64,000 bases of DNA from Promethearchaeota archaeon (GTDB taxonomy: Archaea > Asgardarchaeota > Lokiarchaeia > Sigyniarchaeales > SOKP01). Position 1 is the first letter of the stretch, and every line of letters starts with the position of its first letter. Under the pieces are notes generated by a model. It worked only from the letters and a program-made list of their open reading frames with translations. It was not told the origin of the DNA and made no database searches. Of this stretch, positions 38,078 to 56,300 are shown piece after piece. The DNA is taken from contig JAHLWP010000008.1 of assembly GCA_019057865.1 (NCBI GenBank), positions 1 through 64,000 on the forward strand, in the 5' to 3' direction. A program made the translations under genes and the position numbers.

Positions 38078-39019
38078 TTAAATATTGAAATCGTCCTCAA
38101 AATCATCATATTCTACCTCAAGACGTTTCTTTTCATCTTCTTTCTTTTCCTTCTTTATTTCTTTGCGTTCCTTATGTTTCAGTTCATCATATCTTTTTAT
38201 ATAGATTTGTTCATATTTTTCTCTTAAGGTTTCAACATCTTTAACGGCTCCTATTTTGTCTTCCAAACCATCTTCAAAAAAATAGTTCTTCTTGAATTTG
38301 CTTGCCGGAATCCCAGCATATATCCACTCCCTTTCTAAAACTTGCCCAACAGTAGTAACTGAATTTGCTGCTAATATGCATTTTTGACCAATTTTAGTAC
38401 CTGGCATAACTATTGAATGGGAACCAATTCTTACATCGTCTTCAATAACAGTCTTCCTGATTATTAAGAGATTGCCAATAATACAAGCAGATTGAATAAT
38501 TGCTGCCTGACCGACAACCACATTTTTGCCAAAGTCAATAAATTCGGTGTCAACCCATCCCTCGAAAAGTGAATTTGAGATTTTTGTTTTTACTCCAAAC
38601 GCTTTGAAGCATATATTATCTAAAATTCCAGGGAAAGGAAATCTGTGGGCAAGCCAAATAGGCCACCTCTTAATCGTATTACGAAGACTCCAGTACCGAT
38701 AATCTTTATCAGCAGCAGTTCTTAAAAAAACACCTTCTTTGGGATGGTGAATAACATTAACTATAACCAACAAAATCTTTGCAAAAAATATTGCCGCAAA
38801 GACAATTGTGACATACATCAAGATAGCTAAAAGAGGAAGAAATGTATAAAAATGGATGGGTCTTTCGTAATTCCATAGCAACCGCCAATAAACCCAAAAT
38901 TCTAAGAGAAGCGGAATTATACTTGCCCATATAAGGAAAAAGTAAAAGATTAAATATTTTTTCTTCACTAAAACTGTTGGAGTAAAAGGACCCAACCTCA
39001 TCGTGTTTGGTACAGACAT
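38078..39019 (-). CDS. 2TM + left-handed beta-helix acyltransferase-like protein, module C
   Basis: Two TM helices, PKEGVF...YWSLR, hexapeptide repeats (IEDDVRIGSHSIVMPGTKIG), YAGIPA. Start moved to ATG 39019 (GAGGAG upstream). Confidence 0.8.
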   Translation of the reverse strand: MSVPNTMRLGPFTPTVLVKKKYLIFYFFLIWASIIPLLLEFWVYWRLLWNYERPIHFYTFLPLLAILMYVTIVFAAIFFAKILLVIVNVIHHPKEGVFLRTAADKDYRYWSLRNTIKRWPIWLAHRFPFPGILDNICFKAFGVKTKISNSLFEGWVDTEFIDFGKNVVVGQAAIIQSACIIGNLLIIRKTVIEDDVRIGSHSIVMPGTKIGQKCILAANSVTTVGQVLEREWIYAGIPASKFKKNYFFEDGLEDKIGAVKDVETLREKYEQIYIKRYDELKHKERKEIKKEKKEDEKKRLEVEYDDFEDDFNI

Positions 39020-39023
39020 GCTT

Positions 39024-40910
39024 TTACATCTCCTCAACTTTTTTATTATCTTGGTTAATTTCTTTAGTTTTAATCAGTTCTTTTTTATCTTCATCTATAT
39101 TTACTTCATGCTCAATTTCAAATTTCTTTTCCTCATCGACATCTCTTTTCATCAGTATTTCCCTGCGGGATAATGCATATTTATTTGGTTTGAATTTAAG
39201 GACTGGTATTCCAGTGTAAATCCAACCCGGCTCAAGAATTTGATTCACTGTAGTTGTACTAGCCGCACCCACCATTGTTTCTTTACCTATAATTGTACCT
39301 GGGACGATAGTGGTCTGTGCACCAACCATTACATAGTCGTCTAAAATTACACTTCGAATTAATAGATATTTTCCAACGATCATCGAGGACATTATCACCG
39401 TGGCCTGACCAATTAAATTCTTTCTCCCAAATTTAATAAACTCACCATCACACCAAGTATCATTAAGATGGCTAGAAGTATCCATATTGATTCCTAAAAG
39501 CTTAAAAGCTAGTACGTCCGTCCATGTAAATGGCGAATTTCGAAAAAGCCAAAAAGAGAGTTTCCTTAACTCAGTTCTAATCATCCAGAATTCAAAATCA
39601 GTGTTTTTAATTTCAGCCTTGAAAACACCTTCTTTAGGTTTATGAAGTAAATTTATGAGAATTAAGAATAGTTTGCTAAATATGAGACAGGCTAAAGTAA
39701 AAAAATAAATTGAGCCAAATATGGCCAGAGGAAGAAATGCTATAATAGGAATCCAATTTTCATCAAGAAAATACCAATACCAAAAAATAGCAACGAGAAA
39801 TCCTGAAAGAAAAAAGATGGGAAGATAGATTGCTAAAAATTTGATATTCACTCTACTTATTGCTGAACTTGTAGTAAAATCAATAGCTAAGTCTTCATCC
39901 GTTAAAGAATTTATATCAATTTTATCCTCAGGTAATTCAGCAATTAGTTGTTCTTTATCATCTTCGGGTTTATTATCATTTAATTCTTCAGCTTTTAATT
40001 TTTTCAGTAGCTTTTTATCTTTATACCCTTCAATATTTTCATTTCTCTCTAAATCTTTCTGAGATACATCTAAATAACCCATTATTTTTCTCCTAAATAT
40101 CTTTCTTAATGGCATGCCCCAGTAAAAGTTGTTACCTTTTATCAGACTATGTTTTACGGCTGAAGCCCAAGGAAGTAAATAAGAATTATCGTGTATTTCT
40201 GATCCAGGACCAACCAGATTGGTTGCGGCAGCGGTTACATTATTTCCTACTTTAACTTTAAAATATGAGATATTTCCGAATATTCCTTCCACCACATGAG
40301 TCCCTAAAGCTGAATTCACGCCGAAATAGCAGTTTTCGCCGATCTCGAGAAACTTATCATTAACTATAGATTCCTCAAAGGTAGTTCCTGTCCCTATTTT
40401 ACTTGCCCCCAAAAAGTTAAAAAACCAATTGCTAAGCCAGGGAAAAACGCCTTTCGCGAAGGAATTCTTTCCGTATTTAAGTATGAAGGATCTTATATGA
40501 TAGTAGTTTGCAGCTTTGCTTCTTATATTTCGTGGAATTATTCCTTCTTTGGAGGGAGAGATTTTTTCAGTTATTTTCCATAATAATCGAGTAGCTAAAG
40601 CTAAAAAGGACAAATGAAGTAAATAACACCCAATAAGAACAAATGGCATAGATAGCAGAGACAATAAGGGTTTAAGTTCTATGAAAAGTGATAAGAAATC
40701 TGGTGTTTCTAAAACATTTGGAAGAAAAAATTGTAGAACATAATAAAAAAAGATTATTCCAGAAAACACCCACGATATATAAAAAATAAAGGCAAATAGA
40801 GTTATATAAACATGATAATGGAGCTCAACTTCTTCTTTTATGATTTCATCCTCAGAGTCATTCGAATTTGGTGAATCACTATCTTCAGCTTCTTCGCTCA
40901 TTTTTATCAT
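39024..40910 (-). CDS. Fused A-B membrane left-handed beta-helix acyltransferase-like protein
   Basis: Two tandem [2TM + hexapeptide repeat + G.P] modules. Confidence 0.8.
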   Translation of the reverse strand: MIKMSEEAEDSDSPNSNDSEDEIIKEEVELHYHVYITLFAFIFYISWVFSGIIFFYYVLQFFLPNVLETPDFLSLFIELKPLLSLLSMPFVLIGCYLLHLSFLALATRLLWKITEKISPSKEGIIPRNIRSKAANYYHIRSFILKYGKNSFAKGVFPWLSNWFFNFLGASKIGTGTTFEESIVNDKFLEIGENCYFGVNSALGTHVVEGIFGNISYFKVKVGNNVTAAATNLVGPGSEIHDNSYLLPWASAVKHSLIKGNNFYWGMPLRKIFRRKIMGYLDVSQKDLERNENIEGYKDKKLLKKLKAEELNDNKPEDDKEQLIAELPEDKIDINSLTDEDLAIDFTTSSAISRVNIKFLAIYLPIFFLSGFLVAIFWYWYFLDENWIPIIAFLPLAIFGSIYFFTLACLIFSKLFLILINLLHKPKEGVFKAEIKNTDFEFWMIRTELRKLSFWLFRNSPFTWTDVLAFKLLGINMDTSSHLNDTWCDGEFIKFGRKNLIGQATVIMSSMIVGKYLLIRSVILDDYVMVGAQTTIVPGTIIGKETMVGAASTTTVNQILEPGWIYTGIPVLKFKPNKYALSRREILMKRDVDEEKKFEIEHEVNIDEDKKELIKTKEINQDNKKVEEM

Positions 40911-41038
40911 TAAATTCTAATTCCAAACTATTTTTAATAAATTTTACTTTATTAGAATGCAATTGAAAATTATAATACTTTAATAGATATTTTTTTCCTT
41001 TTAAACTTATAAATCTTAAGTAAAAATAAAAATTTATT

Positions 41039-41434
41039 ATGAGAAACAAATGTGAAAATTGCGGAAAGTGTTGCTTAGAAACAGAAATGATTCTTTCTCC
41101 ACAAGATATTAAAATAATAATAAATAGTTTGCCTAATAATATAAGAAAAGAAGATTTTACATTTAAAAATATTAATGAGCAGTATCAATTAAGAAATATT
41201 GAAGGCCATTGCTTTTTTTTAGATTATTCTAATAAGGAATGTAAGATCTATAAGTTTCGACCTCAAGGATGTAAGTTTTACCCGTTAATATATGATATTA
41301 ATAAAAAAAAGTGTAGACTTGATGAAGAATGTCCTAGAAATAACCTTTTCTATAAAGACAATCAAACTTTAAGAAATGAATGTCAAAATGTAAAGATGTT
41401 TTTAAAAAATCAATTAAATATAAAAATCAATTAA
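41039..41434 (+). CDS. YkgJ-family CxxCxxCC cysteine-cluster protein
   Basis: CENCGKCC, C.FL....C.IY..RP.GC..YP. Confidence 0.88.
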   Translation: MRNKCENCGKCCLETEMILSPQDIKIIINSLPNNIRKEDFTFKNINEQYQLRNIEGHCFFLDYSNKECKIYKFRPQGCKFYPLIYDINKKKCRLDEECPRNNLFYKDNQTLRNECQNVKMFLKNQLNIKIN

Positions 41435-41513
41435 AGAGCAAGATTATTTAGCAGATTTCAGGTTTATGGATAATTGGGAAGATTTTGATGATTTTTAATA
41501 AATAAATTTTTTT

Positions 41514-44420
41514 TTATTTTTTTTCAATAATAACGTCATTATCAATTATTAATTCAATAATTGGAACGTTAGGAATGGATGTAGGAAGAGCCGATACATC
41601 AGTGTTCAATAGCTCTATGCTATATTGTACACCTTTTATTTTCCCTATTTCACTGAAGATCCAATCGAGATTTTTAGATAAATCTGGATAGCCTTGAATT
41701 TCAATTTCTACCAGATCCTCAGTAGGATTAACAGAAAATAAAAACGATTGATCATACAAATGATCCACTGGTTCACATGGAAAATGAGGCTCTATTTCGA
41801 AATTGAGCTCCAATTTTGTTATTATATTTTTAATTTTCTGAAATTTTTTAGGAAGCATCCGTAATAGTTCTGATTTAGAAAAAGTGATTTTGTCTCTTAC
41901 AAAAAATATTTCATACCAAAGTTCTGACAGATCACTGTATTCTTTAAACCACGTATTTTTTAACTCCTTTACTATATTTGGATCATTTAAATTTCTTAGA
42001 TCGCTATTTCTTGATTTAAATCGTCTCGTAACTTCCTCCTTATACATCCGCTCATCAATTATTTCGTCACATCTGAGGTGGAGGATATCTCTTATTGATA
42101 GAGTCTTTAGCATATCTTTCAAGGTTTTCGATCCTAGCATCTTTTTGAACTTTTCTTTGTCTTGGTCTACAGAATTGCCTAGATGACGTACATCAAGTAA
42201 GGCATTAAAATATGTTCTAATCTCTTTTTTCGTCGTTTCGTCCATGACTTCATATCTTTTAAGGAGCGTCAATGATAGATTATAAAAGATAAGTTCTTTT
42301 GTGACCTCTTTAACTATTTTAAACAATAACTGCTTTAAATCAGATGACCAGTAGACAAAATTACCTGCTTCGCTTCCAAGTATATAGTTGAGTATATAAA
42401 CATCACTGCTAATACTAACATCTCCACTAAATAAATCTTCCACTGGTCCCTTAAGATTTGGAGCTATGATAGCAGATGCCTCTTCTATGGATAAGAAACC
42501 AAAATCTTTAAACATAAATTCTTCTTTCCAAAAGGAATCCAAGTACCCATACTCAAGTAAAAAACGAAAAATTCGAAAATGATGAGGATTCCACCACTCA
42601 AATCCGACAGACAATTCCTTGACTATTGCTTTTGAATTTGGTATGATGATCTCAGATATATCTTTCTTAGACAAATAAGCTAAATAACCATGCTCTATTA
42701 AAATTAGAAACCTATAAGAATCCCACTGTTTAAATCCGTTAGCCAATTCTTTTTTGACTATCGTTATTAAATCTTTATCTTCGTACAAGTACATATGCTC
42801 CAGTAAAAAATCTACGCTTTTGAGAGGAATTTTTTGTAAGATATCTTGAGTTAGTATCGCTAATTTTTCGTCCTTATTCAAGAGGTTGAAATACCCACCA
42901 TTGCTAGAAAATAGAAAATTTAAGAATCCAGCAGATGAGTCTTCTTTAAGCATCTTTGATACTTCCTCTTTAATAATGATTAATAATTCTTCTCTGTCTG
43001 GTGCCGTTTTCAATTTCCTCAACTCTTTAAACACACTATCAAAATCGTAAAGGGAATTCAGATCTGTAAAGTAATATTTTTTATATAATCGAAAATTTCT
43101 TCGGATTAATTCTTTCATTACAGTCTTGAATTCAAACGGCAAACTTTTCAAAATTTTTTTCGACGCATTGTGTAAGATGTCTTGAGTTAACACAGTTGAT
43201 AACTCTTCTTTCTTTAGCAAGAAGAGATACTTTTCAAAGTTAATATCCATTTTTACAATTTTAGACAAATTCGGCGTTATAATCGCAGATAATTCTTCTA
43301 TTGATAAAAAATCTAAATAATTATACTTAATTAGAATGTCAATCTTCTTAGAATCCCCATGATCAAATATTTCAGTTATTTCCTCTTTGACCATCGTTTT
43401 TAACCATTCATTTAATGATTTACCAAGTAAATAACCGAGTATGGCGCGATCACTGACACGATCTCTGAACACATCTTTCAATAATTTTTTGAATTTCGGA
43501 GTTATAATCGCAGAGAGTCTTTCTTTAGAAATATATTCCAAGTATCCACGCCGATAAAAAAAATAAAGAGTTTCTAAGGATTCTTTTTCAAGTATTTTGG
43601 CTAAAGCTTCTTTGACCATCGTTTTCAAATCTTCATTTAATGATCTTTCAAGTAAATAGCTAATCAGTTGGAGATCTTGTTTCCTACCTCTTAACAAATC
43701 TTTTAATAATAAGTAGAAATTCGGAGGTATGATCTCAGATAGATCTTCTTTGGACAAAGATAAGGAATCCAAGTGTCCGTGATCAACTAAAAAACGAATC
43801 ATATCAAGATCTCCCCGTCCTAATCCTTCGGCTAATTCCTCTTTGAGTATTGATTTTAATTCTTCATTTAACGATCTCTCAAGTAAATAGTTGAGTAGTT
43901 GGTGATCTTCTTTAGAAACACTTCCTGTAAGGACGTGAATTAATTCTTTAAAATTCGGAGTTATAATTGCAGATAAATCTTCTTTAGACAAAGAATCCAA
44001 GTATTCGTGTTCAAATAAAAAACGAATCATCTCTACAGATCCATGTTCAAATCTTTTAGCGATTTCTTCTTTTAGTATCATACTACTAACGCATCCTTCT
44101 TCAACCAACTTCTTAAGCAGAGAAAAGGATAAATTACTGTGCAACATTCTAGTATTAAAGTTGTTTTCTACCCAGGCTTGTAAATTGGAACAATGGACGA
44201 AAAATCTGGTTTCTGGATCGATTACAATAGTCTTAGGGGATTCTTTAATATCATCGATTGATTCTAGCAGTAGTACATTTTCAATTTCATCAGTGTGAAC
44301 GGTAGTTAACACATGGGAACATTGGATAAAATGATGTCCATTTATGTAAATTGCGGTTTTATCATTCTCTGTAAGAACGACTTCTAAATAGTCCGTGATT
44401 GGGAAACGTTTTTTAATCAT
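41514..44420 (-). CDS. Large helical-repeat protein with Lokiarchaeia-type N-terminal domain
   Basis: N-terminal FVHCSNLQAWVENNFNTRMLHSNLSFSLLKKL; degenerate repeats of about 75-80 aa (KEE....F..G....I.FL....YLD.LSKE.LS.II.PN). Confidence 0.75.
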   Translation of the reverse strand: MIKKRFPITDYLEVVLTENDKTAIYINGHHFIQCSHVLTTVHTDEIENVLLLESIDDIKESPKTIVIDPETRFFVHCSNLQAWVENNFNTRMLHSNLSFSLLKKLVEEGCVSSMILKEEIAKRFEHGSVEMIRFLFEHEYLDSLSKEDLSAIITPNFKELIHVLTGSVSKEDHQLLNYLLERSLNEELKSILKEELAEGLGRGDLDMIRFLVDHGHLDSLSLSKEDLSEIIPPNFYLLLKDLLRGRKQDLQLISYLLERSLNEDLKTMVKEALAKILEKESLETLYFFYRRGYLEYISKERLSAIITPKFKKLLKDVFRDRVSDRAILGYLLGKSLNEWLKTMVKEEITEIFDHGDSKKIDILIKYNYLDFLSIEELSAIITPNLSKIVKMDINFEKYLFLLKKEELSTVLTQDILHNASKKILKSLPFEFKTVMKELIRRNFRLYKKYYFTDLNSLYDFDSVFKELRKLKTAPDREELLIIIKEEVSKMLKEDSSAGFLNFLFSSNGGYFNLLNKDEKLAILTQDILQKIPLKSVDFLLEHMYLYEDKDLITIVKKELANGFKQWDSYRFLILIEHGYLAYLSKKDISEIIIPNSKAIVKELSVGFEWWNPHHFRIFRFLLEYGYLDSFWKEEFMFKDFGFLSIEEASAIIAPNLKGPVEDLFSGDVSISSDVYILNYILGSEAGNFVYWSSDLKQLLFKIVKEVTKELIFYNLSLTLLKRYEVMDETTKKEIRTYFNALLDVRHLGNSVDQDKEKFKKMLGSKTLKDMLKTLSIRDILHLRCDEIIDERMYKEEVTRRFKSRNSDLRNLNDPNIVKELKNTWFKEYSDLSELWYEIFFVRDKITFSKSELLRMLPKKFQKIKNIITKLELNFEIEPHFPCEPVDHLYDQSFLFSVNPTEDLVEIEIQGYPDLSKNLDWIFSEIGKIKGVQYSIELLNTDVSALPTSIPNVPIIELIIDNDVIIEKK

Positions 44421-44598
44421 ATTTAGACTCTACTCTATAAACAGAACTACAGTATTTAAAATTATGCGCTAATTTACAATAGAAAAAGCAAGGCGACAGT
44501 TAGTTAAGGCGCTCGCCGCAAGTGTTGCAATATATATCATTTTTTTCCACTACACTTTTACACGTTTTACAATATATCTTTTTTTCAATATAAGTTTT

Positions 44599-46359
44599 TT
44601 AAGCAAGATCTTTTTTCTCTTCTTCGATGTTAACTTCATGTTCAATTTCAAACTTTTTACGCGCATCTACATCTTTCTTAACAATAAGGTCCCTACGAGA
44701 TTCTGCATATTTATTAGGTTTTAATTTTCTCACTGGCATTCCAAAATACACCCATCCTGGTTCTAAAACTTGATCATATACAGTAAATGACATAGCACCA
44801 ACAAAAGTCTCATTGCCTACAATTGTACCTGGAGCGATTGTGGTCTGTCCGCCAATAAGAACGTAATCACCAAATATTACCTTCTTGATAATCAAATATT
44901 TGCCAACAACCATGGAAGACATGATAGTTGCCGCTTGCCCGATTAAATTTCTGCGCCCGAATTGAATAAACTCTCCATCACACCATGAATCATACAGACC
45001 ACTCGAAAAATCCATCTTTACTCCAAAAAGCTTGAAAGCTAGTACATCAGTCCATGGAAATGGCCAATTTCGTACGAGCCAAAGGGAAATTTTTTTTAGC
45101 TCAGTTCTTAACATCCAGAATTCAAAATCTGTATCGCCAATTTCAGCCTTGAAAACACCTTCTTTGGGACGATGAAATAAATTTATAAGAATCAAAAAAA
45201 GCTTGCTAAAAAAGAAACATCCAAGTATAAAAGTTAGATGCATTATTATCAACATCGCAGGCAAAAATAAGAGCATTAAATACAAGTTTGCAACGAAATA
45301 AGTGTACATATAGAAAAGCATTGAAACTAAAAATCCACTACAAAAAAATATTGGGATATATACTGCTAAAAATTTTATATTAACTCTACTGATTGCACTA
45401 CTCGTTGTGAAATTAAGCGATAAATCTTTAATATCATCCTCCTCATTCTGGTTTTGTGACTCAAGCGGTGGAGTATCAGTTGAATCTTCAACGTCCTCTA
45501 ATTGTTTTAGGCTTTCGGGATCTATTTTTAAATAGTTCTTGATTCTTCTTTTAAATATTTTCCGGAGGGGTAGTGCCCCTTGCGAAAAATAATAACCATT
45601 TCCTTTTATCACACTATGTTTTGTGGCTGAAGCTAAAGGAAGTAAATAAGAGTTATCATATATTTCCGATCCTGAAGCAATTAGGTTCATCGCTGCTGCT
45701 GTAACATTATCTCCTACTTTAATTTTAAAGTATGAGATATTACCGAATATTCCATCGACCAGATGGGTCGCTAAAGCTGAATTCACGCCGATATAGCAGT
45801 TTTCGCCAATCTCGAGAAACTTATCATTAACTACAGATTCTTCTAATATCGTTCCTTTCCCAATTTTGCTTGATTTTACAAAATTATAAAGCCAAGGCAC
45901 TAGCCATGGAAAAAACCCTTTCGTGAAAGTATTTTTGGGATATTTCAGCAGAAAAGATCTTATATGATAATAGTTTAATGTCTTACTTGGGAGATTTCGA
46001 GGTATTATTCCTGATTTCGAAGGAGATCTTTTCTCTGTTAATCCCCAGAACCAGCGAGCAATTAAAGCAATTAAAAATAAGTGAATTAAGTAGCATCCGA
46101 TAATGACTAATGGCATAGATATTAATGCCAAAAGGGGTTTAAAATTGATAAAAAGTGAAAGAAAATTTGTTGTTTCTAAAAAGTAAGGTAAAAAATAAAA
46201 CAATACATATGTCATGAAGATTATTACTGGGACCAAATAAGATATTAAATAAATAGTAAAAAAAATAATTAAATACCAGAAATATTGAAACTGGACATCT
46301 TCTTTTATTATATTTTTGATTGAAAGACTTGGACTTACTTTTTCTTTTATTTTAGGCAT
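44599..46359 (-). CDS. Fused A-B membrane left-handed beta-helix acyltransferase-like protein (paralog of 39024..40910)
   Basis: Shares near-identical blocks with 39024..40910 (NDKFLEIGENCY.GVNSAL, FTTSSAISRVNIKFLA, PKEGVFKAEI..TDFEFWM). Confidence 0.8.
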   Translation of the reverse strand: MPKIKEKVSPSLSIKNIIKEDVQFQYFWYLIIFFTIYLISYLVPVIIFMTYVLFYFLPYFLETTNFLSLFINFKPLLALISMPLVIIGCYLIHLFLIALIARWFWGLTEKRSPSKSGIIPRNLPSKTLNYYHIRSFLLKYPKNTFTKGFFPWLVPWLYNFVKSSKIGKGTILEESVVNDKFLEIGENCYIGVNSALATHLVDGIFGNISYFKIKVGDNVTAAAMNLIASGSEIYDNSYLLPLASATKHSVIKGNGYYFSQGALPLRKIFKRRIKNYLKIDPESLKQLEDVEDSTDTPPLESQNQNEEDDIKDLSLNFTTSSAISRVNIKFLAVYIPIFFCSGFLVSMLFYMYTYFVANLYLMLLFLPAMLIIMHLTFILGCFFFSKLFLILINLFHRPKEGVFKAEIGDTDFEFWMLRTELKKISLWLVRNWPFPWTDVLAFKLFGVKMDFSSGLYDSWCDGEFIQFGRRNLIGQAATIMSSMVVGKYLIIKKVIFGDYVLIGGQTTIAPGTIVGNETFVGAMSFTVYDQVLEPGWVYFGMPVRKLKPNKYAESRRDLIVKKDVDARKKFEIEHEVNIEEEKKDLA

Positions 46360-46583
46360 ATAATAAATTTTATATTAATAATTTTCAGATATATTTACTA
46401 GTTAAGTATTTTTTTCTAAAAAACTCTGATAATAATTAATAATATTTGTTATATTAAGTTGAATCTTTAGAATTTTTAAATAAAATGGACTCCAATACCC
46501 TTTGGATACAGATACTTTAGATAGATATTATTGATTACTTTCAGAAATAAAAAATAAAGAAAAAAATAAAGAAAAAAATAAAA

Positions 46584-46838
46584 TTAAGATTTATTTCTCT
46601 TTCTTATTAAGATGAAAGCTATGACACCCACCACCTCCAAAAGTATGTACACATCATAACCAGGAATTTCAGGTGATGGTTGCTTAACCACATCCTTTAT
46701 CATGATATTTTCCGCAGAAGTCTCAAACCCTAATGAATTGTTCACATAAAATTTGAGAGTAACAGCTCCATTTTCTCGCTTATTCCATTCCGTCTGGCTA
46801 ATTTGTCCTGTGGGTCCGGTGAAAGTAATATTTATCAA
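46584..46838 (-). pseudogene. C-terminal fragment of a surface protein with an IPGY-TM-basic sorting tail
   Basis: Partial beta-sandwich-like sequence followed by EIPGYDVYILLEVVGVIAFILIRKRNKS; no signal peptide; non-ATG start. Confidence 0.55.
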
Positions 46839-46923
46839 TATCTTTATAAAAAAAGCTATCCTATATAGTTTGAAATCTACAATTTAGTAATATTTCAATA
46901 TTCATTGTAGAGGATGAGAAATC

Positions 46924-48495
46924 TTGAAGAAAAAAAATTTTAAAATCTTAATATTAATAATAGTTGTAATTTCAACAGTATTTTTTATAAATAGATCTTT
47001 TGCAACTAAAAATCAAACTATTGGAGAATCAAGTGTAACTAACATTGAGATACCTCAATTATCATTTGAGACTTTATGGACACCTAATGGTATGGCCATA
47101 TGTACAGCGGAAGATAATCAAAATTTCCCTCAAATATGTAGTGATGGGGCAGGGGGAGCAATCATTACTTGGGTAGATGATAGAAGCTCGGAATTAGATA
47201 TTTACGCTCAGAGGGTTGATTCAGATGGAAATATTCAATGGACACCTAACGGAACAGCCATCTGTACCGCAGACAATGACCAAGAGGATCCTCAAATATG
47301 TAGTGATGGGGCAGGGGGAGCAATCATTACATGGGATGATCAGAGAAGCTTATCTGATGGAATTTATGCTCAGAGGGTTGATTCAACTGGTAATATTCAA
47401 TGGACGCTTAACGGAACAGCAATTTGTACAGCACCTGAGTTCCAATCTGGACCTCAGATATGCAGTGATGGGGCAGGGGGAGCAATTATAACATGGTTGG
47501 ATACTAGAGGAGGTAGTGATAATATCTACACACAAAAAGTTAATGCAACTGGAGATGTGCAATGGGTCATCAATGGTATAGCTATATATATAGAAGGTTT
47601 TATCCAATTAGCCCCTCAAATATGCAGTGACGGAGCAGGAGGGGCGATTATTGCATGGGATGATCTTAGAAGCGAATTAGATGAAGATATTTACGCCCAA
47701 ATGGTTGATTCAGATGGAGTTGTGCAATGGGCAAGTAATGGTACAGCTATATGTACGGCAAATAATGAACAACTGTATTATCAAATATCTGCTGATGGAG
47801 CAGGGGGGGCAATCATAACATGGTCAGACTATAGAATTAATCCGTCAGGTGATATTTACGCCCAGAAAGTAGACTCGTCCGGGAATGTACAATGGACTAC
47901 CGATGGAATAGCTATATGCACGAATATTGACGGATTCCCCCTAAAATTTGTCCCCCAAATCTGTAGTGATGGAGGAGGAGGAGCGATTATCTCATGGAAC
48001 GGTTATGGCATGGGTATGGATATCTATGCTCAGAGAGTTGATTCAACTGGAAATGTACAATGGACTGTCAATGGCATAGCTATATGTACAGCAGATGGAA
48101 GGCAAGTTGATCATCAAATTTGTAGTGACGAAAATGGGGGTGCAATCATTACTTGGACAGATGGTAGATACTCAATTAGGGATATTTACGCTCAGAAAGT
48201 TAGTGCTAATGGAAATACACAATGGACGTCTAATGGGAAACCAATATGCACGGAAAGCAATACCCAAGCATACCCGCAAATTTGCAGCGACGGAACAGGT
48301 GACGCAATCATCACCTGGGAAGATCTTAGAAGTGGTGCAGACTACGACATTTACGCTCAGTGTATAAAAGATGTTCCATCGAAAGGAGGAGGAGCAATTC
48401 CATTTGGAAATTACTACCTCCTTTTTACTTTGATTAGTATACTTTCTCTAGTAATTCTTGAAAAATGCCGAAATATCCGCAAATTCAAATCCTAA
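46924..48495 (+). CDS. Secreted, membrane-anchored repeat protein (probable 8-bladed beta-propeller)
   Basis: Signal peptide; 8 repeats of about 54 aa; C-terminal IPFG + TM + basic tail. Confidence 0.85.
   Translation: MKKKNFKILILIIVVISTVFFINRSFATKNQTIGESSVTNIEIPQLSFETLWTPNGMAICTAEDNQNFPQICSDGAGGAIITWVDDRSSELDIYAQRVDSDGNIQWTPNGTAICTADNDQEDPQICSDGAGGAIITWDDQRSLSDGIYAQRVDSTGNIQWTLNGTAICTAPEFQSGPQICSDGAGGAIITWLDTRGGSDNIYTQKVNATGDVQWVINGIAIYIEGFIQLAPQICSDGAGGAIIAWDDLRSELDEDIYAQMVDSDGVVQWASNGTAICTANNEQLYYQISADGAGGAIITWSDYRINPSGDIYAQKVDSSGNVQWTTDGIAICTNIDGFPLKFVPQICSDGGGGAIISWNGYGMGMDIYAQRVDSTGNVQWTVNGIAICTADGRQVDHQICSDENGGAIITWTDGRYSIRDIYAQKVSANGNTQWTSNGKPICTESNTQAYPQICSDGTGDAIITWEDLRSGADYDIYAQCIKDVPSKGGGAIPFGNYYLLFTLISILSLVILEKCRNIRKFKS
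47077..48369 (+). repeat. Eight intragenic tandem repeats of about 162 nt
   Basis: Unit W..NG.AICT.....PQICSDG.GGAIITW.D.R...DIYAQ.VDS.GN.Q. The DNA block cctcaaatatgtagtgatggggcagggggagcaatcattac recurs exactly in units 1 and 2. Confidence 0.9.
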
Positions 48496-48595
48496 ATTAA
48501 ACCATATCCTAAATTAAACCAATAATAAGCTTAAATTTTTTTTTCTTTCTTTCAATATATTTTTACATTAAAATACAGAGATTTAGTTTTTAATT

Positions 48596-48634
48596 ATGAG
48601 AAAGGGTAATAGTAAGGCCATCCACCTTTATGAA
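48596..48634 (+). promoter_or_regulatory. Candidate SECIS-like hairpin upstream of the second Sec-peroxiredoxin
   Basis: ATGA-G-AAAGGGT-AATAGTAAGGCCATCC-ACCTTTA-TGAA: UGAN/NGAN core, 6 pairs plus one A-A mismatch, AA opening the loop. Confidence 0.35.
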
Positions 48635-48738
48635 TCGCATAAAAGAATAATAATTATAATTTTTAATAGGAATATAGTTAAGCAACATTTATTTCTTATT
48701 TATTTAAATTATAAATAAAATAACTAAGTGAACTCAAA

Positions 48739-49212
48739 TTGAAAGATAAATTTAATTTAATAGGAAAAAAAATCAAGGAATTTTCACTATCAAATTCTAG
48801 AGGGGAAACTAGAGATATCCGTGAATTTGAAGGTGAAAAAAACGTAGTAATTGTACTATTCAGGAGTAAAAGTTGACCTTATTCTAAAGCTCATTCAGAA
48901 AAATTAGGAAATGACTATGAAAAATTCATAGAACTAAATACAGAATTGTATGCAATCTTACCAGATGATTTCAAAAATGCTAAAAATTTTGAATCGAATT
49001 TTGCGAAAAAGTATCCTATATTTTATGATCATAAAAAAAAGGTAAATAAAATGTTAAAACAAGAAGTAAAGCCATTAAAATTAGGGAGAATGCCAGCGCT
49101 TCTTATCATAGATAAACAAGGGATTATAAGATATGCATATTATAGTGATTCTATGGATGATATCCCTGAGAATGAGGATTTATTTGAGGTACTTGAGAAC
49201 TTGAATAACTAA
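48739..49212 (+). CDS. Peroxiredoxin-like (AhpC/TSA) selenoprotein; Sec at codon 46 (TGA 48874-48876)
   Basis: Frame from TTG 48739: ...IGKKIKEFSLSNSRGE...NVVIVLFRSKS*PYSKAH..., running into the track ORF 48946..49212 (PALLIIDKQGIIRYAY). The TGA sits at the C of a C-P-Y-x motif. Confidence 0.8.
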
Positions 49213-49403
49213 AACGATTTGGTATGAATAAAATAGAATAAATTTTTGAATTTTATGCATAAAAGTTAGCCACACTTTACCAAATCAAAAATTGTTGCCA
49301 TATTACCACCTTAAGTAATAATTTGAATAATGGTAGAATGGATTAAGAAAATAATATTAATAAATATTACAGAACCATTTATCAAAACTATTTATTTCAG
49401 AAT

Positions 49404-50189
49404 TTAACTTAAGTAATAATCCTTTCTTCTGTCATAAATGATATCATTGAATTCATTCAGTTTCTTATCTCTAACTTTTTCTATATCAATTTCTACCAAA
49501 TCTATAGATGCTTTATCTGAGGGGGCTGATGATAAAACTTTTCCATCATATGAAGTAATCTGACTCTCCCCTGTGAATTTAAAATTATCCTCGCCCCTTG
49601 TCTCTCGTCCAATTCTGTTAGCTGTCACAGCATAAACTCGATTTTCTAAACATCGCGTAATTATTGCTTTTTGACAATAAGGAAGTACAAGATTTGCTGG
49701 ATGAGCGATAATATCGGCCCCAAGAAGAGTTAGAGTTCGAGCAGTTTCAGGAAAGAACCAATCAAAGCATATCATTATTCCTATTTTGATTCCATTGATT
49801 TCATATATTTTTAATGGTTTGTCACCAGGAACAAACCATAATTTTTCCTTGTAATACAAGTGAAGTTTTCTATACACTCCTAACAATTCTGAACCAGATA
49901 TTATCATAGCAGAATTAAATATTTTATCTTTATCTTTTTCTATAAACCCTCCAACTATAGTAGCCGAAGCCTTTTTAGATAAATCCTTTAAAAATTGAGC
50001 AGTTTGTCCATCTAATCCTTCTGATAATGATTCAGCTTCCTTTTTTGAAATAAATGTGTAACCTGTAGCAAATAATTCGGGTAAAACAATTAAATCTGCT
50101 CTCAATTTGGCTGTTAATTTTTCAATTTCCTTAAAATTTCGCTTTTTATCTCCAAAGAATGGTGATGTTTGAATATATCCAACTTTCAT
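49404..50189 (-). CDS. Carbon-nitrogen hydrolase (nitrilase family)
   Basis: Catalytic triad motifs LPELF, YRKLHL, ICFDWFFPE. Confidence 0.9.
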   Translation of the reverse strand: MKVGYIQTSPFFGDKKRNFKEIEKLTAKLRADLIVLPELFATGYTFISKKEAESLSEGLDGQTAQFLKDLSKKASATIVGGFIEKDKDKIFNSAMIISGSELLGVYRKLHLYYKEKLWFVPGDKPLKIYEINGIKIGIMICFDWFFPETARTLTLLGADIIAHPANLVLPYCQKAIITRCLENRVYAVTANRIGRETRGEDNFKFTGESQITSYDGKVLSSAPSDKASIDLVEIDIEKVRDKKLNEFNDIIYDRRKDYYLS

Positions 50190-50239
50190 TTTACATCAAA
50201 TATAATTTTATTTTAATAGAATAAGAAAATAAGGTTATT

Positions 50240-51091
50240 TTAATCAATTTCAGTTTCTTTATCCCTTCGCATTGTGTATAAATCCTCATATTTTGCAAGC
50301 GTTTTTAAATCCTCTTCTCCTTTCCTATCAATTATGTCTTCTAAATTATCTTCAAAATATACATTTTTCTTGTATTTCTTTGCTGGTGCTCCTAAGTAAA
50401 TATAATTTTCTTCTAATTCTTGACCAACAGTGGTCATTGAGTTACCTCCTAATATAGAATTCTTTTTCATATGCGTTCCAGGCATAACAATACTATGGGC
50501 ACCAATGACTGCGTTATTCTCAATAATCGTTTTCCTTATGATAAATAAATTTCCAACTATGATTGCTGATTGGACAATTGCGCTCTGTCCACAGACTATG
50601 TTTTTACCAAATTCTATAAATTCTGTATCTACCCACCCCTCAAAAAGAGAATTAGAATATTTAGTTTTAACACCAAACATTTTTAAACAGATATTATCCA
50701 TAAAAGGAAGGGGAAATTTATGAGATATCCAAAATGGCCATTTTTTTATAGTACTTCTTAAACTCCAATATCTATAATCTTTATCAGAAGGGTGCCTAAG
50801 AAAAACCCCCTCGCGCGGTTTATGAATAAGATTAACGATAACAAGAAAGATTTTTGCAAAAATTAAAGATACCATTATGGATGTTAAGTACATAACAAAT
50901 ATTAGAAGAGGTAAGAAAAATAAAAAATGAATAAATTTCCAGTCATATAGAAGATTCCAATACCACCAAAATTCAAACTGAATTGAAAAAATACTAATCC
51001 AAATTAAAAAAATATAGAAAGCTAAATATCTCTTTTTTACTAAGACTAACGTAGTATTTGGTCCAACTTTTAAACTCGATGGCACTGACAT
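50240..51091 (-). CDS. 2TM + left-handed beta-helix protein, module C
   Basis: Paralog of 38078..39019 (MSVP..L..GP, DKDYRYWSLR, SNSLFEGWVDTEFI). Start moved to ATG 51091 (GGAGGA upstream). Confidence 0.8.
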   Translation of the reverse strand: MSVPSSLKVGPNTTLVLVKKRYLAFYIFLIWISIFSIQFEFWWYWNLLYDWKFIHFLFFLPLLIFVMYLTSIMVSLIFAKIFLVIVNLIHKPREGVFLRHPSDKDYRYWSLRSTIKKWPFWISHKFPLPFMDNICLKMFGVKTKYSNSLFEGWVDTEFIEFGKNIVCGQSAIVQSAIIVGNLFIIRKTIIENNAVIGAHSIVMPGTHMKKNSILGGNSMTTVGQELEENYIYLGAPAKKYKKNVYFEDNLEDIIDRKGEEDLKTLAKYEDLYTMRRDKETEID

Positions 51092-51095
51092 ATTT

Positions 51096-51986
51096 TCAAT
51101 CCTCCTTATTATCATTTATTAGCTTTTTCTGCTCCTCATCAATATTAACTTCTTGTTTAACTTCATATTTTACTTCTTCATCTACATGTTTCCTATAAAT
51201 GATATCCCGTCTTTGTTCTGCGTACTTATTAGGTTTTAATTTTCTTGAAAATTGTGGGCCTAAGTAAATCCAAGCCTGCTCTATAATTTGATTTGGAATT
51301 GTTGTAGAAAAAGCAGCAAGGATTGATTCTTTACCCATAATAGTACCAGGAGAAACATTTGATACACCACCGACAACTATATGATCTCCAAGGATGATCT
51401 TTTTAATTATCAAATAGTTTCCTACGATACTAGAGCTCATTATCACACTTCCTTGCCCTACCGTAATGTTTCGACCAAATTCTATAAACTCTCCATCCAC
51501 CCAAGCATCTTGTAAGTGGCTAGAAAAATCAATTCTTACTCCTAACCACCGGAAACCCCACATTACTACCCATGGGAGTGGACCGTTACTCATAAACCAA
51601 AGTACTAGTTTTTTAAGTTCTATACGTAATCTCCAAAATTCATAATCTTGATTACCTTCTTCTGCTCGAAATACACCCTCTTTAGGTTTATGAACCATAT
51701 TTATGATAAGAAGGAATGCCTTTGTAAATATAGCAATTCCAAATATAAAAATGAAATATAAAATGAATGACCATACGGGAAGTAAGAACATATTTATATA
51801 CCATGGGATATATTGTGATGCGTCGAAGAAAACCGCAACCGCCATGTACCCTGAAATCCACATGATTGGGATATATAAAGCAAGAAATTTATAACCAATT
51901 TTGCTAATTACACTACTTGTTACAAAATCAATTGTATAATCTATTTTATTAGCATTAATTTTTTGCTCTTCTATATTCTCACTCAT
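51096..51986 (-). CDS. 2TM + left-handed beta-helix protein, module B
   Basis: Matches the C-terminal half of the fused proteins (DF.TSS.IS, PKEGVF, KPNKYA..RR). Confidence 0.8.
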   Translation of the reverse strand: MSENIEEQKINANKIDYTIDFVTSSVISKIGYKFLALYIPIMWISGYMAVAVFFDASQYIPWYINMFLLPVWSFILYFIFIFGIAIFTKAFLLIINMVHKPKEGVFRAEEGNQDYEFWRLRIELKKLVLWFMSNGPLPWVVMWGFRWLGVRIDFSSHLQDAWVDGEFIEFGRNITVGQGSVIMSSSIVGNYLIIKKIILGDHIVVGGVSNVSPGTIMGKESILAAFSTTIPNQIIEQAWIYLGPQFSRKLKPNKYAEQRRDIIYRKHVDEEVKYEVKQEVNIDEEQKKLINDNKED

Positions 51987-52906
51987 TTAGTCTTTTCTCT
52001 CTTCTTCTTTTTTGTCTGTTCTGATAAATTTTTTTTTAATTCTTCTGCTCTTTTCAAATCTTCCTCTGTGACTTGTAGATATTCCATAACCTTTCTTTTA
52101 AACACTTTCCTGAGGGGAGTTCCAAAATAATACGAGTTCCCTTTCAAGATATTATATTTTGATGCTCCTGTCATTGGTAACCACCAAGAATTATTTCCCG
52201 TATCTACACCAGGACCAAAACAATTAAATCCCGCAGATGTAACATTATTTCCAATTTTTACTTTAGCAAATGAAATATTACCAAAAATGCCTTCTACAGC
52301 ATGGGAGCTAATACCTGGATTTGTACCAATATAAACATTTTCTCCAACTTCTATAAATCGATCCCCAGCAAGTTGTTCCTCAATAACAGATCCCTTCCCT
52401 ATTTTATTAGTACCGACAAAATTATACATCCATTTCAATAGCCAGGGGAATGGGCCCCGAGAAAAAGCATTTTTGGGATACTTGATAATAAAACTTCTAA
52501 AATGGTAAAAATTCAGAGTTTTACTGGGTATATTTCGAGGGATAATTCCTGATTTGGAGGGTGACTTATTTTCCGAATAGTTCCAAAACCAACGAGTTAT
52601 TAGAGCTACAATAAACAAATGTATTAAATAACATATTATAATTACAAACGGTATTGTTATGGAGGCAATGAGGGAAGGTAAATTAGTAAAAATAGATATA
52701 AAATTTTTTATTTCCAAGAAATAAGGTAAATAAAAAAGCATTATATACATCATAAAAATTATACTAGGTATTAAAAAAGAGCAAAAATAGATAACATAGA
52801 ACGCTGGTAACCATAAATACAATCGTAAACTAATTTCTTCTTTAATAATATTATTTCCGGAATTTTCTATCTGATCTGAACTTTTCGATTCCAACTTTTT
52901 TCCCAC
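51983..52906 (-). CDS. 2TM + left-handed beta-helix protein, module A
   Basis: Matches the N-terminal half of the fused proteins (SPSKSGIIPRN, H.VEGIFGNIS). 4-nt overlap with module B. Confidence 0.8.
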   Translation of the reverse strand: MGKKLESKSSDQIENSGNNIIKEEISLRLYLWLPAFYVIYFCSFLIPSIIFMMYIMLFYLPYFLEIKNFISIFTNLPSLIASITIPFVIIICYLIHLFIVALITRWFWNYSENKSPSKSGIIPRNIPSKTLNFYHFRSFIIKYPKNAFSRGPFPWLLKWMYNFVGTNKIGKGSVIEEQLAGDRFIEVGENVYIGTNPGISSHAVEGIFGNISFAKVKIGNNVTSAGFNCFGPGVDTGNNSWWLPMTGASKYNILKGNSYYFGTPLRKVFKRKVMEYLQVTEEDLKRAEELKKNLSEQTKKKKREKTK

Positions 52907-53394: not shown

Positions 53395-56300
53395 ATGACC
53401 AATAACTCATTCTCGTTAACAGATCTGTACCCAAAATATGTAATCAATTCAAAAGGCGAAAAGAAAAAATTCGATGAGAGTAATATTGCTAAAGTACTAA
53501 ACAAAGAGACAGGCTTGGATATGCACATTGCTGAAAAAGTTGCTGAAGATGTAATAAGAAAAATAATAGGTCTTGGAATAGAGGAGATTACCACTAATTA
53601 TATTAGAGAACTAGTTTGTGTGGAATTAACTCAACGCGGCCTGAATAAATATAGAAATCTGTTCGCTCGAGCTATAAATTTGGAGAATATCAGCTTTAAA
53701 TTAGATGAGACTTTTATTGAAAATTATGTAGGAAAGCGGCCAACTTTCGGCCCATTAGGTTACATTACATATAAAAGAACTTATGCAAGATTTATAGAAG
53801 CAGAGAATAGAAAAGAAGAATTCTGGGAAACCATTAGAAGAGTGGTTGAGGGTTGTTATTCAATCCAAAAAGAACATTGTATTAAACTTAGCTTACCATG
53901 GAGCGATGCAAAAGCACAAAAATCTGCTCAAACCATGTTTAAAAAGATATGGGATTTCAAATTTTTGCCTCCTGGAAGAGGTTTATGGATGATGGGAACA
54001 GAGTTTATTGCTCGCCATGGTTCTATGTCTCTTAATAATTGCGGATTCGCCTCTACAGAAGATATTGATCTAAAATATTCAAAAGCCTTTGAATTTGTAA
54101 TGGATGCTTTAATGTTGGGGGTTGGAGTAGGTTTTGATACAAAAGGAGCAGGAAAATTTAAAATCAAAAAACCACAAGAAGGTCATTTTGACTATCAAAT
54201 TCCTGATAGTAGAGAGGGTTGGGTTGAGGCTTTAAAACTAGTACTTGAAGCTTATTTCTTAGGGAAGCAAGTTCCAACTTATGATTTTAACCTCATTAGA
54301 CCGGCAGGGAAGCCAATAAGAGGCTTTGGAGGGATTGCCTCCGGACCAGGTCCTTTAAAGGAAATGCTCGAAGATATTCACAACATATTAGAAGCTCGAG
54401 TTGGGCAACCGATTACATCTGTTGATATTGTTGATATAATGAATTACATTGGTAAATGTGTTGTGGCGGGTAACGTTAGAAGGAGCGCAGAAATTGCTTT
54501 AGGAGATCCAGGTGATTTAAGTTTTGTGACATGTAAACAAGATCAAGAAAAATTATATTCTCATAGATGGGCTAGTAACAATAGTGTTTTTGCTGTAAAA
54601 GGCTTGGATTATTCATTCATTGCAAATCAAATAGCTGTGAATGGAGAGCCTGGAATTTTTTGGCTAGAAAACGCAAAAGCATATTCTCGAATGGGAGATA
54701 AGCCAGATTATAAAGATAAGAAAGCTGCTGGCGTAAATCCTTGTGGAGAACAGTCCTTAGAATCTTTCGAGCTGTGTTGTGTCACAGGAGATACAAGAAT
54801 TCAGATCAAAAATGGTGCTCCTCGAATCTCAGAGATGGTTGATAAAGAAGTAGAAGTATGGAATGGAGATCGTTGGTCAAAAGTCATCCCTTTTATAGCA
54901 GCTAAAGATAAGGAAATTTATCGAGTACATATATCAGATGGGTCTTATTTAGATTGCACTCTGGATCATAAATGGCATATCAAACCATCAACTGCCAGAA
55001 TTTTTCGATCAGTCCAGACAAAAGAGTTAAAACCAGGAGATTATGTAGTATCATTCGAAATTGATAAAGAATTCGGTGGTATCTATGAACCAAATGCATT
55101 TGAATATGGTTTATTTTCGGGTGATGGTTATATTGATAAAAATTATCCTATGGTTTGTATTTGTGGAGAAAAATCAAAATTAAAAGATCTTGATGTTAAA
55201 GGAACTTGGTATAAGGAACAAATAAAAGAAGGTTATAAAGAACCTTATAACCGACTGAATCTTAATGGTGTTATTGAATTAGAACTATCACTGATTCTGA
55301 ACGATAAATCTAGTGGCCTTCCTGATATTATTTTTAGTTGGGATCGTGAGTCAATATTAGAATTTATTGCAGGATTAATTGAGACTGATGGAAATTTATG
55401 TCATCAAGTAAATACAGATAACTATAGGATTTTTGGAAATGAAGAAAAAATACGAGATCTTCAGTTACTTCTTAGGAGAGTAGGAATAAATCATTCTAGT
55501 ATTTATTCTGCAGGTGAAGCTGGAGAAGAAACGAATTTTGGAATCAGAAATTATAGTATTTATTGTTTATTTATTCCATCATATGAATGTGGGGATATTC
55601 CTACTAGAATTAAAAAAGCAACTCGTATAGGGAAGAGGTATGTTATAAATAATCGCCATCCAGAGGGGAAATTTATTGATAGGGCTAGGAAACAAAAAAT
55701 TATAAAAATCGAGCAATCAAATAAAAAACAATCTGTTTATTGTTTTACAGAACCCAAAAATCATATGGGCGTATTTGGAAATGTTCTAACTTATCAATGC
55801 TTGGTAGAGACGTTTCCTTCGAGACATGACTCTTTTGAGGAGTTCCAAGGAACTTTAAAGTATGCTTATTTATATGCCAAATCTGTTACGCTTGTAAATA
55901 CGCATTGGCAAGAAACTAACGCAGTAATGCTTAAGAATCGGAGGATGGGAATTTCCCAAACAGGAATAATAGAAGCTTTTGTGAAATATGGAAGAAGGGC
56001 CATATTAGAATGGTGTGATAAAGGATATAAATATTTACAGGAACTAGACGAACAATACTCTGGTTGGCTTTGTATACCGAGAAGTATAAAACTCACAACT
56101 GTAAAGCCAAGTGGGACCGTAAGTTTGCTCCCAGGAGTACCACCTGGTATTCATTATCCTCATTCTGAATATTATATTAGAAGGATACGCATTTCAAAGA
56201 ATTCTGACTTAATTAAGCCACTTAAGAATGCGGGTTATTATATTGAAGAAGATTCATATTCACCAAATACGGTTGTTGTCGAATTCCCTGTCCATGAGAA

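Follow-up and report, generated by a model that had tools for sequence, protein, structure and literature searches.

What do three kinds of membrane-anchored left-handed beta-helix (LbH) module build together when they are encoded side by side, several times over, in a single Asgard archaeal genome, and which reaction would the product catalyse? The question is raised by positions 38,078 to 52,906 of a 64,000-nucleotide stretch from a Promethearchaeota archaeon, called here the window (positions 1-64000 of contig C3, a contig label not to be confused with the gene C3 below), in a genome of 4.26 Mb on 87 contigs that is 99.67% complete. Modules were read from the program-listed open reading frames (ORFs) and their translations. 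Six minus-strand ORFs carry eight modules, each made of two transmembrane (TM) stretches, a linker and an LbH, and belonging to one of three types, A, B and C. An earlier note on this DNA had described six such genes; all lie where it placed them, and their translations account for the eight modules. With a plus sign between separate genes and adjoining letters for fused ones, the arrangement in the window is A + B + C, AB on its own, and AB + C. The analysis presented here, drawn from sequence comparison and structure prediction, indicates that A, B and C probably form a membrane-anchored heterotrimeric LbH acyltransferase with a single active site and a CoA thioester as donor. The six genes are as follows.

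51983..52906, minus strand: A1, a type-A module (two TM stretches, linker and LbH) with its His within 'SSHAVEG'; it scores 466 bits with the type-A hidden Markov model (HMM), against 62 for the next type
51096..51986, minus strand: B1, a type-B module with Ser at the position of the type-A catalytic His; TIGR02353 matches residues 66-237, TM2 included
50240..51115, minus strand: C1, a type-C module; TIGR02353 matches residues 37-250 (model positions 5-215)
44599..46359, minus strand: AB2, a fusion of A (about 45460-46359) and B (about 44599-45459) that lacks a C gene of its own
39024..40910, minus strand: AB3, a fusion of A and B that carries His205
38078..39037, minus strand: C3, a type-C module translationally coupled to AB3

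In each module, Lys and Arg are enriched ahead of the first hydrophobic stretch and behind the second, a distribution that fits an N-in, C-in hairpin with a cytoplasmic soluble part. TM2 is followed by the motif HKPKEGVF in types B and C or SPSKSGIIP in type A, and then by hexapeptide repeats. BLASTP identities are 45-62% among A modules, 49-66% among B modules and about 60% among C modules; between types they are 34-40% for B and C, and about 21-25% for A compared with B or C. The 17 modules of the genome nevertheless align as homologues over their full length, with an invariant G (of PKEGVF), an invariant R and a second invariant G. Pfam was set aside as a sole identifier, since it reports nothing beyond Hexapep/LbH matches on the six window proteins; it finds no AMP-binding domain in any of them. 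The genes are tightly packed: the reading frames of A1 and B1 overlap by 4 nucleotides, and the most likely start of C1 is ATG 51091, located 4 nucleotides past the TGA of B1 and preceded by AAGGAGG, the start given by the ORF finder (51115) being less likely. By the same sequence features, C3 most likely starts at ATG 39019, 4 nucleotides past the TAA of AB3 and preceded by GAGGAG, rather than at 39037. Both GGAGG-like sites fall within the upstream genes.

The window holds 8 of the 17 modules; the others form two CA + B sets, on contigs C54 and C75, and three solo modules, two of them B/C-like on contig C23 and one A-like on contig C45, giving a genome-wide tally of 6 A, 6 B and 5 C.

L003 6702-7610 (plus strand), L003 11263-12012 (plus strand) and L004 6453-7310 (minus strand): solo modules, one A-like, one B-like and one C-like

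Together, these three could constitute a dispersed extra set. Since CA + B sets occur alongside A + B + C and AB + C, the conserved order is cyclic and not linear; the claim of the earlier note that the order is always A-B-C thus stands within the window and fails at the two CA + B loci. The tally of 6 A, 6 B and 5 C fits the idea that AB2 borrows a C subunit from another set. The ortholog of AB2 likewise lacks its own C gene in relatives L005-L007, and in other genera an additional AB is found close to an A + B + C set. From this gene content, sharing of the C subunit, or interchange of AB paralogs, appears plausible. Among the neighbours of the module loci outside the window (acyl-CoA dehydrogenase, M50/AN1 protein, S-adenosylmethionine synthetase, metallophosphatase, ThiI and a major facilitator superfamily transporter), nothing is recurrent.

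Homologs of the AB fusions number in the hundreds, at 58-96% identity, all in Asgard metagenome-assembled genomes (MAGs), where they are annotated as 'hypothetical protein' or 'acetyltransferase-like'; the best 80 loci in species-representative genomes all come from MAGs named Promethearchaeota, Promethearchaeia or with other Asgard names. Across 151 sampled genomes of the phylum, strong matches occur in 25 of 25 genomes of the family of the window organism (mostly >= 8 per genome) and in both genomes of the sister family, while other families give weak matches. In five genomes from other families, the matches are single modules (two TM stretches and an LbH), nearly all of them scattered. Modules were typed at 12 loci in seven relatives, and full sets were counted with orphan AB2, solo modules and partly sampled loci set aside. 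All 11 full sets, from the genome itself and from relatives G147, G040, G135, G144 and G030, contain A, B and C once each, encoded co-directionally in the cyclic order A + B + C, AB + C or CA + B; in the sister family, the locus contains A and one B/C-like module. Natural fusions of all three modules in the order C-A-B also exist: P0129 (797 residues), P0278 (805 residues) and P0315 (808 residues). ESM Atlas returned nothing but automatically named Asgard acetyltransferase clusters, and no description of an Asgard A/B/C module system was found in the literature. A further three-module protein, P0327 (848 residues, in the cluster of P0270), comes from the transcriptome of the eukaryote Goniomonas pacifica and represents either a genuine gene or prey contamination.

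The natural C-A-B fusion was used to predict how the modules may assemble. For its modelling with AlphaFold2 (AF2), a staggered alignment (A3) was used, in which CA fusions cover modules 1-2, AB fusions modules 2-3 and full fusions the whole length, each row having been checked for correct placement; it replaced a MAFFT alignment (A2) in which all single modules were stacked on module 1. The model of P0129 reaches a mean pLDDT of 87.3 and a predicted TM-score (pTM) of 0.88 over 797 residues, a value from which the three modules appear confidently placed relative to one another and which would fit a packed trimer. Each module is modelled as a TM helix of about 27 residues, a second one of about 37, a short strand, two helices and the LbH; as predicted, this topology is the one published for PosA (PMC10522769). 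AB3 modelled alone has the same topology per module with lower scores (pLDDT 73.2, pTM 0.64), as expected for an incomplete assembly. The heteromeric A + B + C complex that the earlier note had proposed thus gains support from the strict 1:1:1 cyclic sets, from three kinds of fusion and from the confident C-A-B model, and the co-occurrence of the three types that it suggested surveying is found, at 1:1:1, in five relatives of the same family.

When compared with solved structures, the soluble part of the modules most resembles known acetyltransferases. The top Foldseek matches in the PDB are CoA-dependent maltose and galactoside O-acetyltransferases (MAT/GAT, such as Maa and LacA), with a probability of 1.00 and target-normalised TM-scores of 0.56-0.60. 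Lower-ranking matches are AntD, serine acetyltransferases and gamma-carbonic anhydrases, with membrane LbH proteins absent. The gamma-carbonic-anhydrase-like chains of complex I occur among both sequence and fold matches. Like the modules, MAT/GAT enzymes have an LbH followed by a C-terminal 'G.P' end. They are, however, soluble homotrimers with three identical sites, whereas the Asgard modules add a TM hairpin and a linker of the type found in the epsilon-poly-lysine synthetase Pls, and two of the three module types of an Asgard set lack the histidine discussed below.

This histidine lies in the type-A motif T-H-x-x-[ED]-G, which aligns with 'TGHPVHHE' of LacA and 'ATHP' of the maltose acetyltransferases (Maa). 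The aligned residue of LacA, counted in the alignment, is His115, the general base of that enzyme. The type-A His (His205 of AB3) is invariant across 74 AB fusions, is present in 6 of the 6 type-A modules of the genome and is found in 50 of the 58 type-A rows of alignment A3. In the alignment of the genome's modules, types B and C have Ser at this position. Since only type A keeps the His aligned with a catalytic residue, each A-B-C trimer would contain one active site. The zinc triad of gamma-class carbonic anhydrases was not found: in the LbH, types B and C have no conserved His and type A has two (H205 and H254), the remaining conserved His residues of the modules all being located ahead of the LbH.

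The second relationship of the modules is with the C-terminal region of the Pls/PosA family, in which PosA is described as having six bent TM helices, a strand and two helices ahead of each LbH, and three five-turn left-handed helices that pack as a pseudo-trimer (PMC10522769). For this domain, an experimental structure is absent and the mechanism is unsettled (PMC10522769). The 17-module alignment (profile A1, 287 positions, distinct from gene A1) was searched against 1.84 billion representative proteins and matches the Pls-type synthetases P0260 (1320 residues, E 4.6e-35) and P0266 (1296 residues, E 2e-34). Each is matched in three stretches, the best of which span profile positions 22/33 to 252/256 and so take in the TM pair, the linker and the helix. 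AMP-binding and PP-binding domains are present in both proteins, whose TIGR02353 scores are 590-615 bits (P0260 at 590). When profile A1 is compared by hhalign with four aligned Pls terminal domains (alignment A4), the match has a probability of 99.2% and an E value of 3e-19; its 166 columns begin at the end of TM2 and extend across the linker and the LbH, with PKEGVF facing KPGxYP and YxYWxLR facing YYxRFW. As judged from these profiles, the relation to the Pls/PosA terminal region, first proposed in the earlier note, is one of true homology, extending to the TM pair and linker. TIGR02353 itself was discarded as a membership test: the six window proteins score 11-47 bits against a cut-off of 423.1 (genuine members, 580-615), and its weak matches are nonspecific, the LbH part of the model matching 14 of 14 control genomes. 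For this reason, the case for homology rests on the profile searches and not on TIGR02353. Sequence searches of the PDB with the modules return soluble LbH enzymes only, with no Pls terminal domain among them, and P0267, a candidate stand-alone terminal domain, proved to be a partial record of a non-ribosomal peptide synthetase (NRPS).

The likeness extends to the plan of the Pls/PosA terminal domain (TM1-2/C1, TM3-4/C2 and TM5-6/C3): three modules of two TM stretches, a linker of about 180 residues and an LbH; homologous TM pair, linker motifs and beta-helix; a predicted topology with a strand and two helices between hairpin and LbH and pseudo-trimeric packing; and a mixture of modules with and without the His, which is present in Pls modules 1 and 3 and replaced by Ser in module 2. 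There are also differences. The Asgard genes lack adenylation and thiolation domains, their genome lacks carrier domains and phosphopantetheinyl transferase (PPTase), their modules are divided over two or three genes (one or two modules per window gene), and several paralogous sets coexist in one genome. In addition, the Asgard modules form their own clade, and the divergence of A, B and C within it took place separately from that of C1-C3. A pairing by orthology, in which each Asgard type would correspond to one of the Pls modules C1, C2 and C3, was rejected, given that the type HMMs pair inconsistently and that tree and topology test oppose it.

The tree in question was built by maximum likelihood from 94 modules (LG+G4, SH-aLRT support). 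It groups the modules of the order of the window organism into a clade (support 99), itself made of an A clade (98) and a B/C clade that separates into B and C; Pls modules form their own clade (96), as do the bacterial fused proteins P0196, P0199, P0214 and P0249 (99), which lack adenylation and thiolation domains (A/T-less). Constraining A modules and the His-bearing Pls modules to form one group, which was chosen after the tree had been seen, costs 31.6 log-likelihood units (approximately unbiased (AU) test, p = 0.017). From these separate clades, the Asgard system would be a sister lineage that became heterotrimeric independently, and not a broken-up Pls gene, so that the equivalence drawn in the earlier note does not hold if it is read as a split Pls. 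A homotrimeric ancestor is suggested by the single modules that other Asgard families encode. According to the phylogeny, single-module ancestors would have given rise to three-module pseudo-trimeric LbH membrane enzymes on at least three occasions. The bacterial fused proteins (P0199; P0249, from an Elusimicrobia MAG; P0214, with an N-terminal short-chain dehydrogenase/reductase (SDR) domain) resemble the Asgard sets in having three TM-hairpin and LbH modules and no NRPS domains, and have intermediate TIGR02353 scores (157-184 bits), but each is one polypeptide and they belong to a separate clade. The loci of P0199 and P0249 (L034 8001-16407 and L035 6931-13144) are apparent operons with SDR, family 1 glycosyltransferase (GT1), GMC oxidoreductase, AMP-binding and dTDP-sugar-type genes, a context suggesting that, in this clade, a glycosylated small molecule or lipid is acylated; Asgard loci are devoid of SDR, GT1, AMP-binding and sugar-nucleotide neighbours. 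These bacterial loci resemble an uncharacterised pathway.

Which donor the Asgard sets would use can be approached through genome content. Adenylation and thiolation domains are absent from the six genes and from the whole genome, as the earlier note had reported for the locus. No match to PF00550 (PP-binding) or PF01648 (PPTase) was obtained in the genome, at its completeness of 99.67%, whereas control genomes match both. The genome has about 18 AMP-binding ligase-like genes; all fall short of the cut-off of TIGR01733 (NRPS adenylation), and none adjoins a module locus. With neither PP-binding domain nor PPTase, a carrier-bound donor is unlikely, and so is the adenylation/thiolation partner encoded in trans that the earlier note had envisaged; the condensation or peptide-ligation chemistry proposed there likewise finds no support. 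CoA thioesters are the usual donors of MAT/GAT-like enzymes, and a CoA thioester is thus the most economical and most likely choice.

These elements can be assembled into a working scheme. Six TM helices, one hairpin per module, would anchor three cytoplasmic MAT/GAT-like beta-helices around a pseudo-threefold axis, an architecture equal to that predicted for the C-terminal polymerisation domain of Pls/PosA. The single active site would probably lie at the interface of A with B or C, with B and C acting as scaffold or substrate-binding subunits. An acyl or aminoacyl group, most likely delivered as a CoA thioester, would be transferred on the cytoplasmic side of the membrane to an acceptor with an amine or hydroxyl group: a lipid, a lipid-linked glycan or a chain leaving via the TM bundle. 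The paralogous sets (A1 + B1 + C1, AB3 + C3, orphan AB2 and the two CA + B sets) would probably differ in substrate. Several observations weigh against this scheme. Gln replaces the catalytic-aligned His in 8 of the 58 type-A modules of alignment A3; the AF2 models are of single chains, in which the interface and the position of the type-A His are not seen directly; TIGR02353 scores fall far below the cut-off, and the LbH part of that model is indiscriminate, as described above; and no conserved neighbouring gene names the donor or the acceptor.

Alternative explanations differ in what they make of the same evidence. The kinship with Pls invites the view that A + B + C sets are true polymerases or ligases of the Pls-terminal kind, making and exporting an isopeptide-linked poly-amino acid or another polyamide from monomers provided by a trans-acting activating enzyme, aminoacyl-CoA or aminoacyl-tRNA. 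Pls and PosA, the sole relatives studied, are polymerases (PMC10522769), and the homology takes in the TM pair and the linker, the region in which mutations between Pls TM domains give shorter chains (review PMC8506220); many AMP-binding ligases in the genome and an AlaX gene adjoining C3 could be added to this case. Yet the genome offers neither carrier domain nor PPTase, its AMP-binding genes stay below the NRPS adenylation cut-off and away from the modules, and the adjacency of AlaX is confined to close relatives. Furthermore, Pls modules form a separate clade, so that the function of Pls need not carry over to the Asgard modules, and the bacterial A/T-less relatives beside SDR, GT1 and sugar-nucleotide genes argue for acylation of small molecules or glycolipids. 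A polymerase is accordingly considered unlikely.

The two other alternatives dispute either the hetero-complex or the catalysis. LbH enzymes are normally homotrimers, other Asgard families have just dispersed single modules, and solo modules occur on contigs C23 and C45 of the genome itself; A, B and C might then be clustered paralogs, that is, three independent homotrimeric membrane acetyltransferases with their own substrates. Against such a view stand B and C modules that lack the catalytic His, the strict 1:1:1 composition, cyclic order and translational coupling, AB, CA and CAB fusions that join unlike modules in one chain, and a C-A-B fusion that is modelled as a single compact body (pTM 0.88); it is regarded as highly improbable. 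More improbable still is a non-enzymatic structural, channel or regulatory membrane assembly on an LbH scaffold. An LbH trimer does serve as a scaffold in complex I, through its gamma-carbonic-anhydrase-like subunits, and such chains are among the matches; loss of the His in two of three module types, its replacement by Gln in some type-A modules and the want of a conserved partner enzyme nearby would also be accommodated. Against this, the His that aligns with the catalytic residue of GAT/MAT enzymes does not vary in 74 AB fusions, the top fold matches are CoA-bound acetyltransferases, and no module has a zinc-capable set of three conserved His residues. A heterotrimeric acyltransferase with one A-type site is hence preferred as the probable explanation.

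A bolder extension, judged rather improbable, would make the A + B + C sets carrier-independent membrane ligases or polymerases that use a CoA thioester or another free donor at the single A-type site and thread the product through the bundle of six helices to the cell surface; different surface polymers or lipid modifications would be the work of the five or six sets per genome. If true, it would provide a minimal and dissectable version of the unsolved polymerisation mechanism of Pls, whose terminal domain makes the commercially used epsilon-poly-lysine. In any event, a natural split version, free of adenylation and thiolation domains and apparently endowed with one active site, would allow subunit-by-subunit experiments on the Pls/PosA terminal fold. 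For Asgard biology, it adds what appears from sequence to be a strongly conserved membrane enzyme system, restricted to one order, in relatives of eukaryotes, with 60-96% identity between MAGs and 17 modules in the genome considered here. This work contributes the module phylogeny and its AU test, a confidently modelled natural triple fusion and the gene context of the bacterial A/T-less relatives.

The genes that surround the modules in the window are the following.

50 nucleotides downstream of C1: C-N hydrolase gene, recurring in the close relative L006 only and missing from L008-L019
Convergent with C3: AlaX gene, recurring in the close relatives L006 and L007 only and missing from L008-L019
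41039..41434, plus strand: CxxCxxCC metal-binding protein (PF03692, E 4e-13), divergent from AB3, with the same divergent placement in L005, L006, L007 and L017
41514-44420, minus strand: 968-residue cytoplasmic repeat protein with no Pfam match and many helical repeats of approximately 50 residues ('L..EEL/SAIITPN...')
46924-48495, plus strand: 523-residue predicted surface protein with a signal or anchor at its N terminus and a hydrophobic anchor at its C terminus
53395-56649, plus strand: ribonucleotide reductase of class II (B12-dependent) that contains an ATP-cone as well as an intein bearing LAGLIDADG motifs, divergent from A1

The C-N hydrolase and AlaX were rejected as partners, as they stand beside modules in close relatives only; the doubt that the earlier note had cast on both was justified. 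The CxxCxxCC gene (PF03692) is the sole neighbour that recurs in another genus (L017), a weak link that leaves its membership of the system uncertain. The 968-residue repeat protein, which sits here between AB2 and the CxxCxxCC gene and is missing at the syntenic locus of L006, is probably a lineage-specific insertion. In the syntenic block between module sets, relatives carry a heliorhodopsin gene (L005 1903-2709; L006 3034-3873), with no counterpart found in the matching interval of the window. The 523-residue protein contains about ten propeller-blade-like repeats of the form 'ICSDGAGGAIITW.D.R....DIYAQ.VDS.GN.QWT.NG.AICTA'. The ribonucleotide reductase gene stands beside the A + B + C set in relatives L016 and L019 as well.

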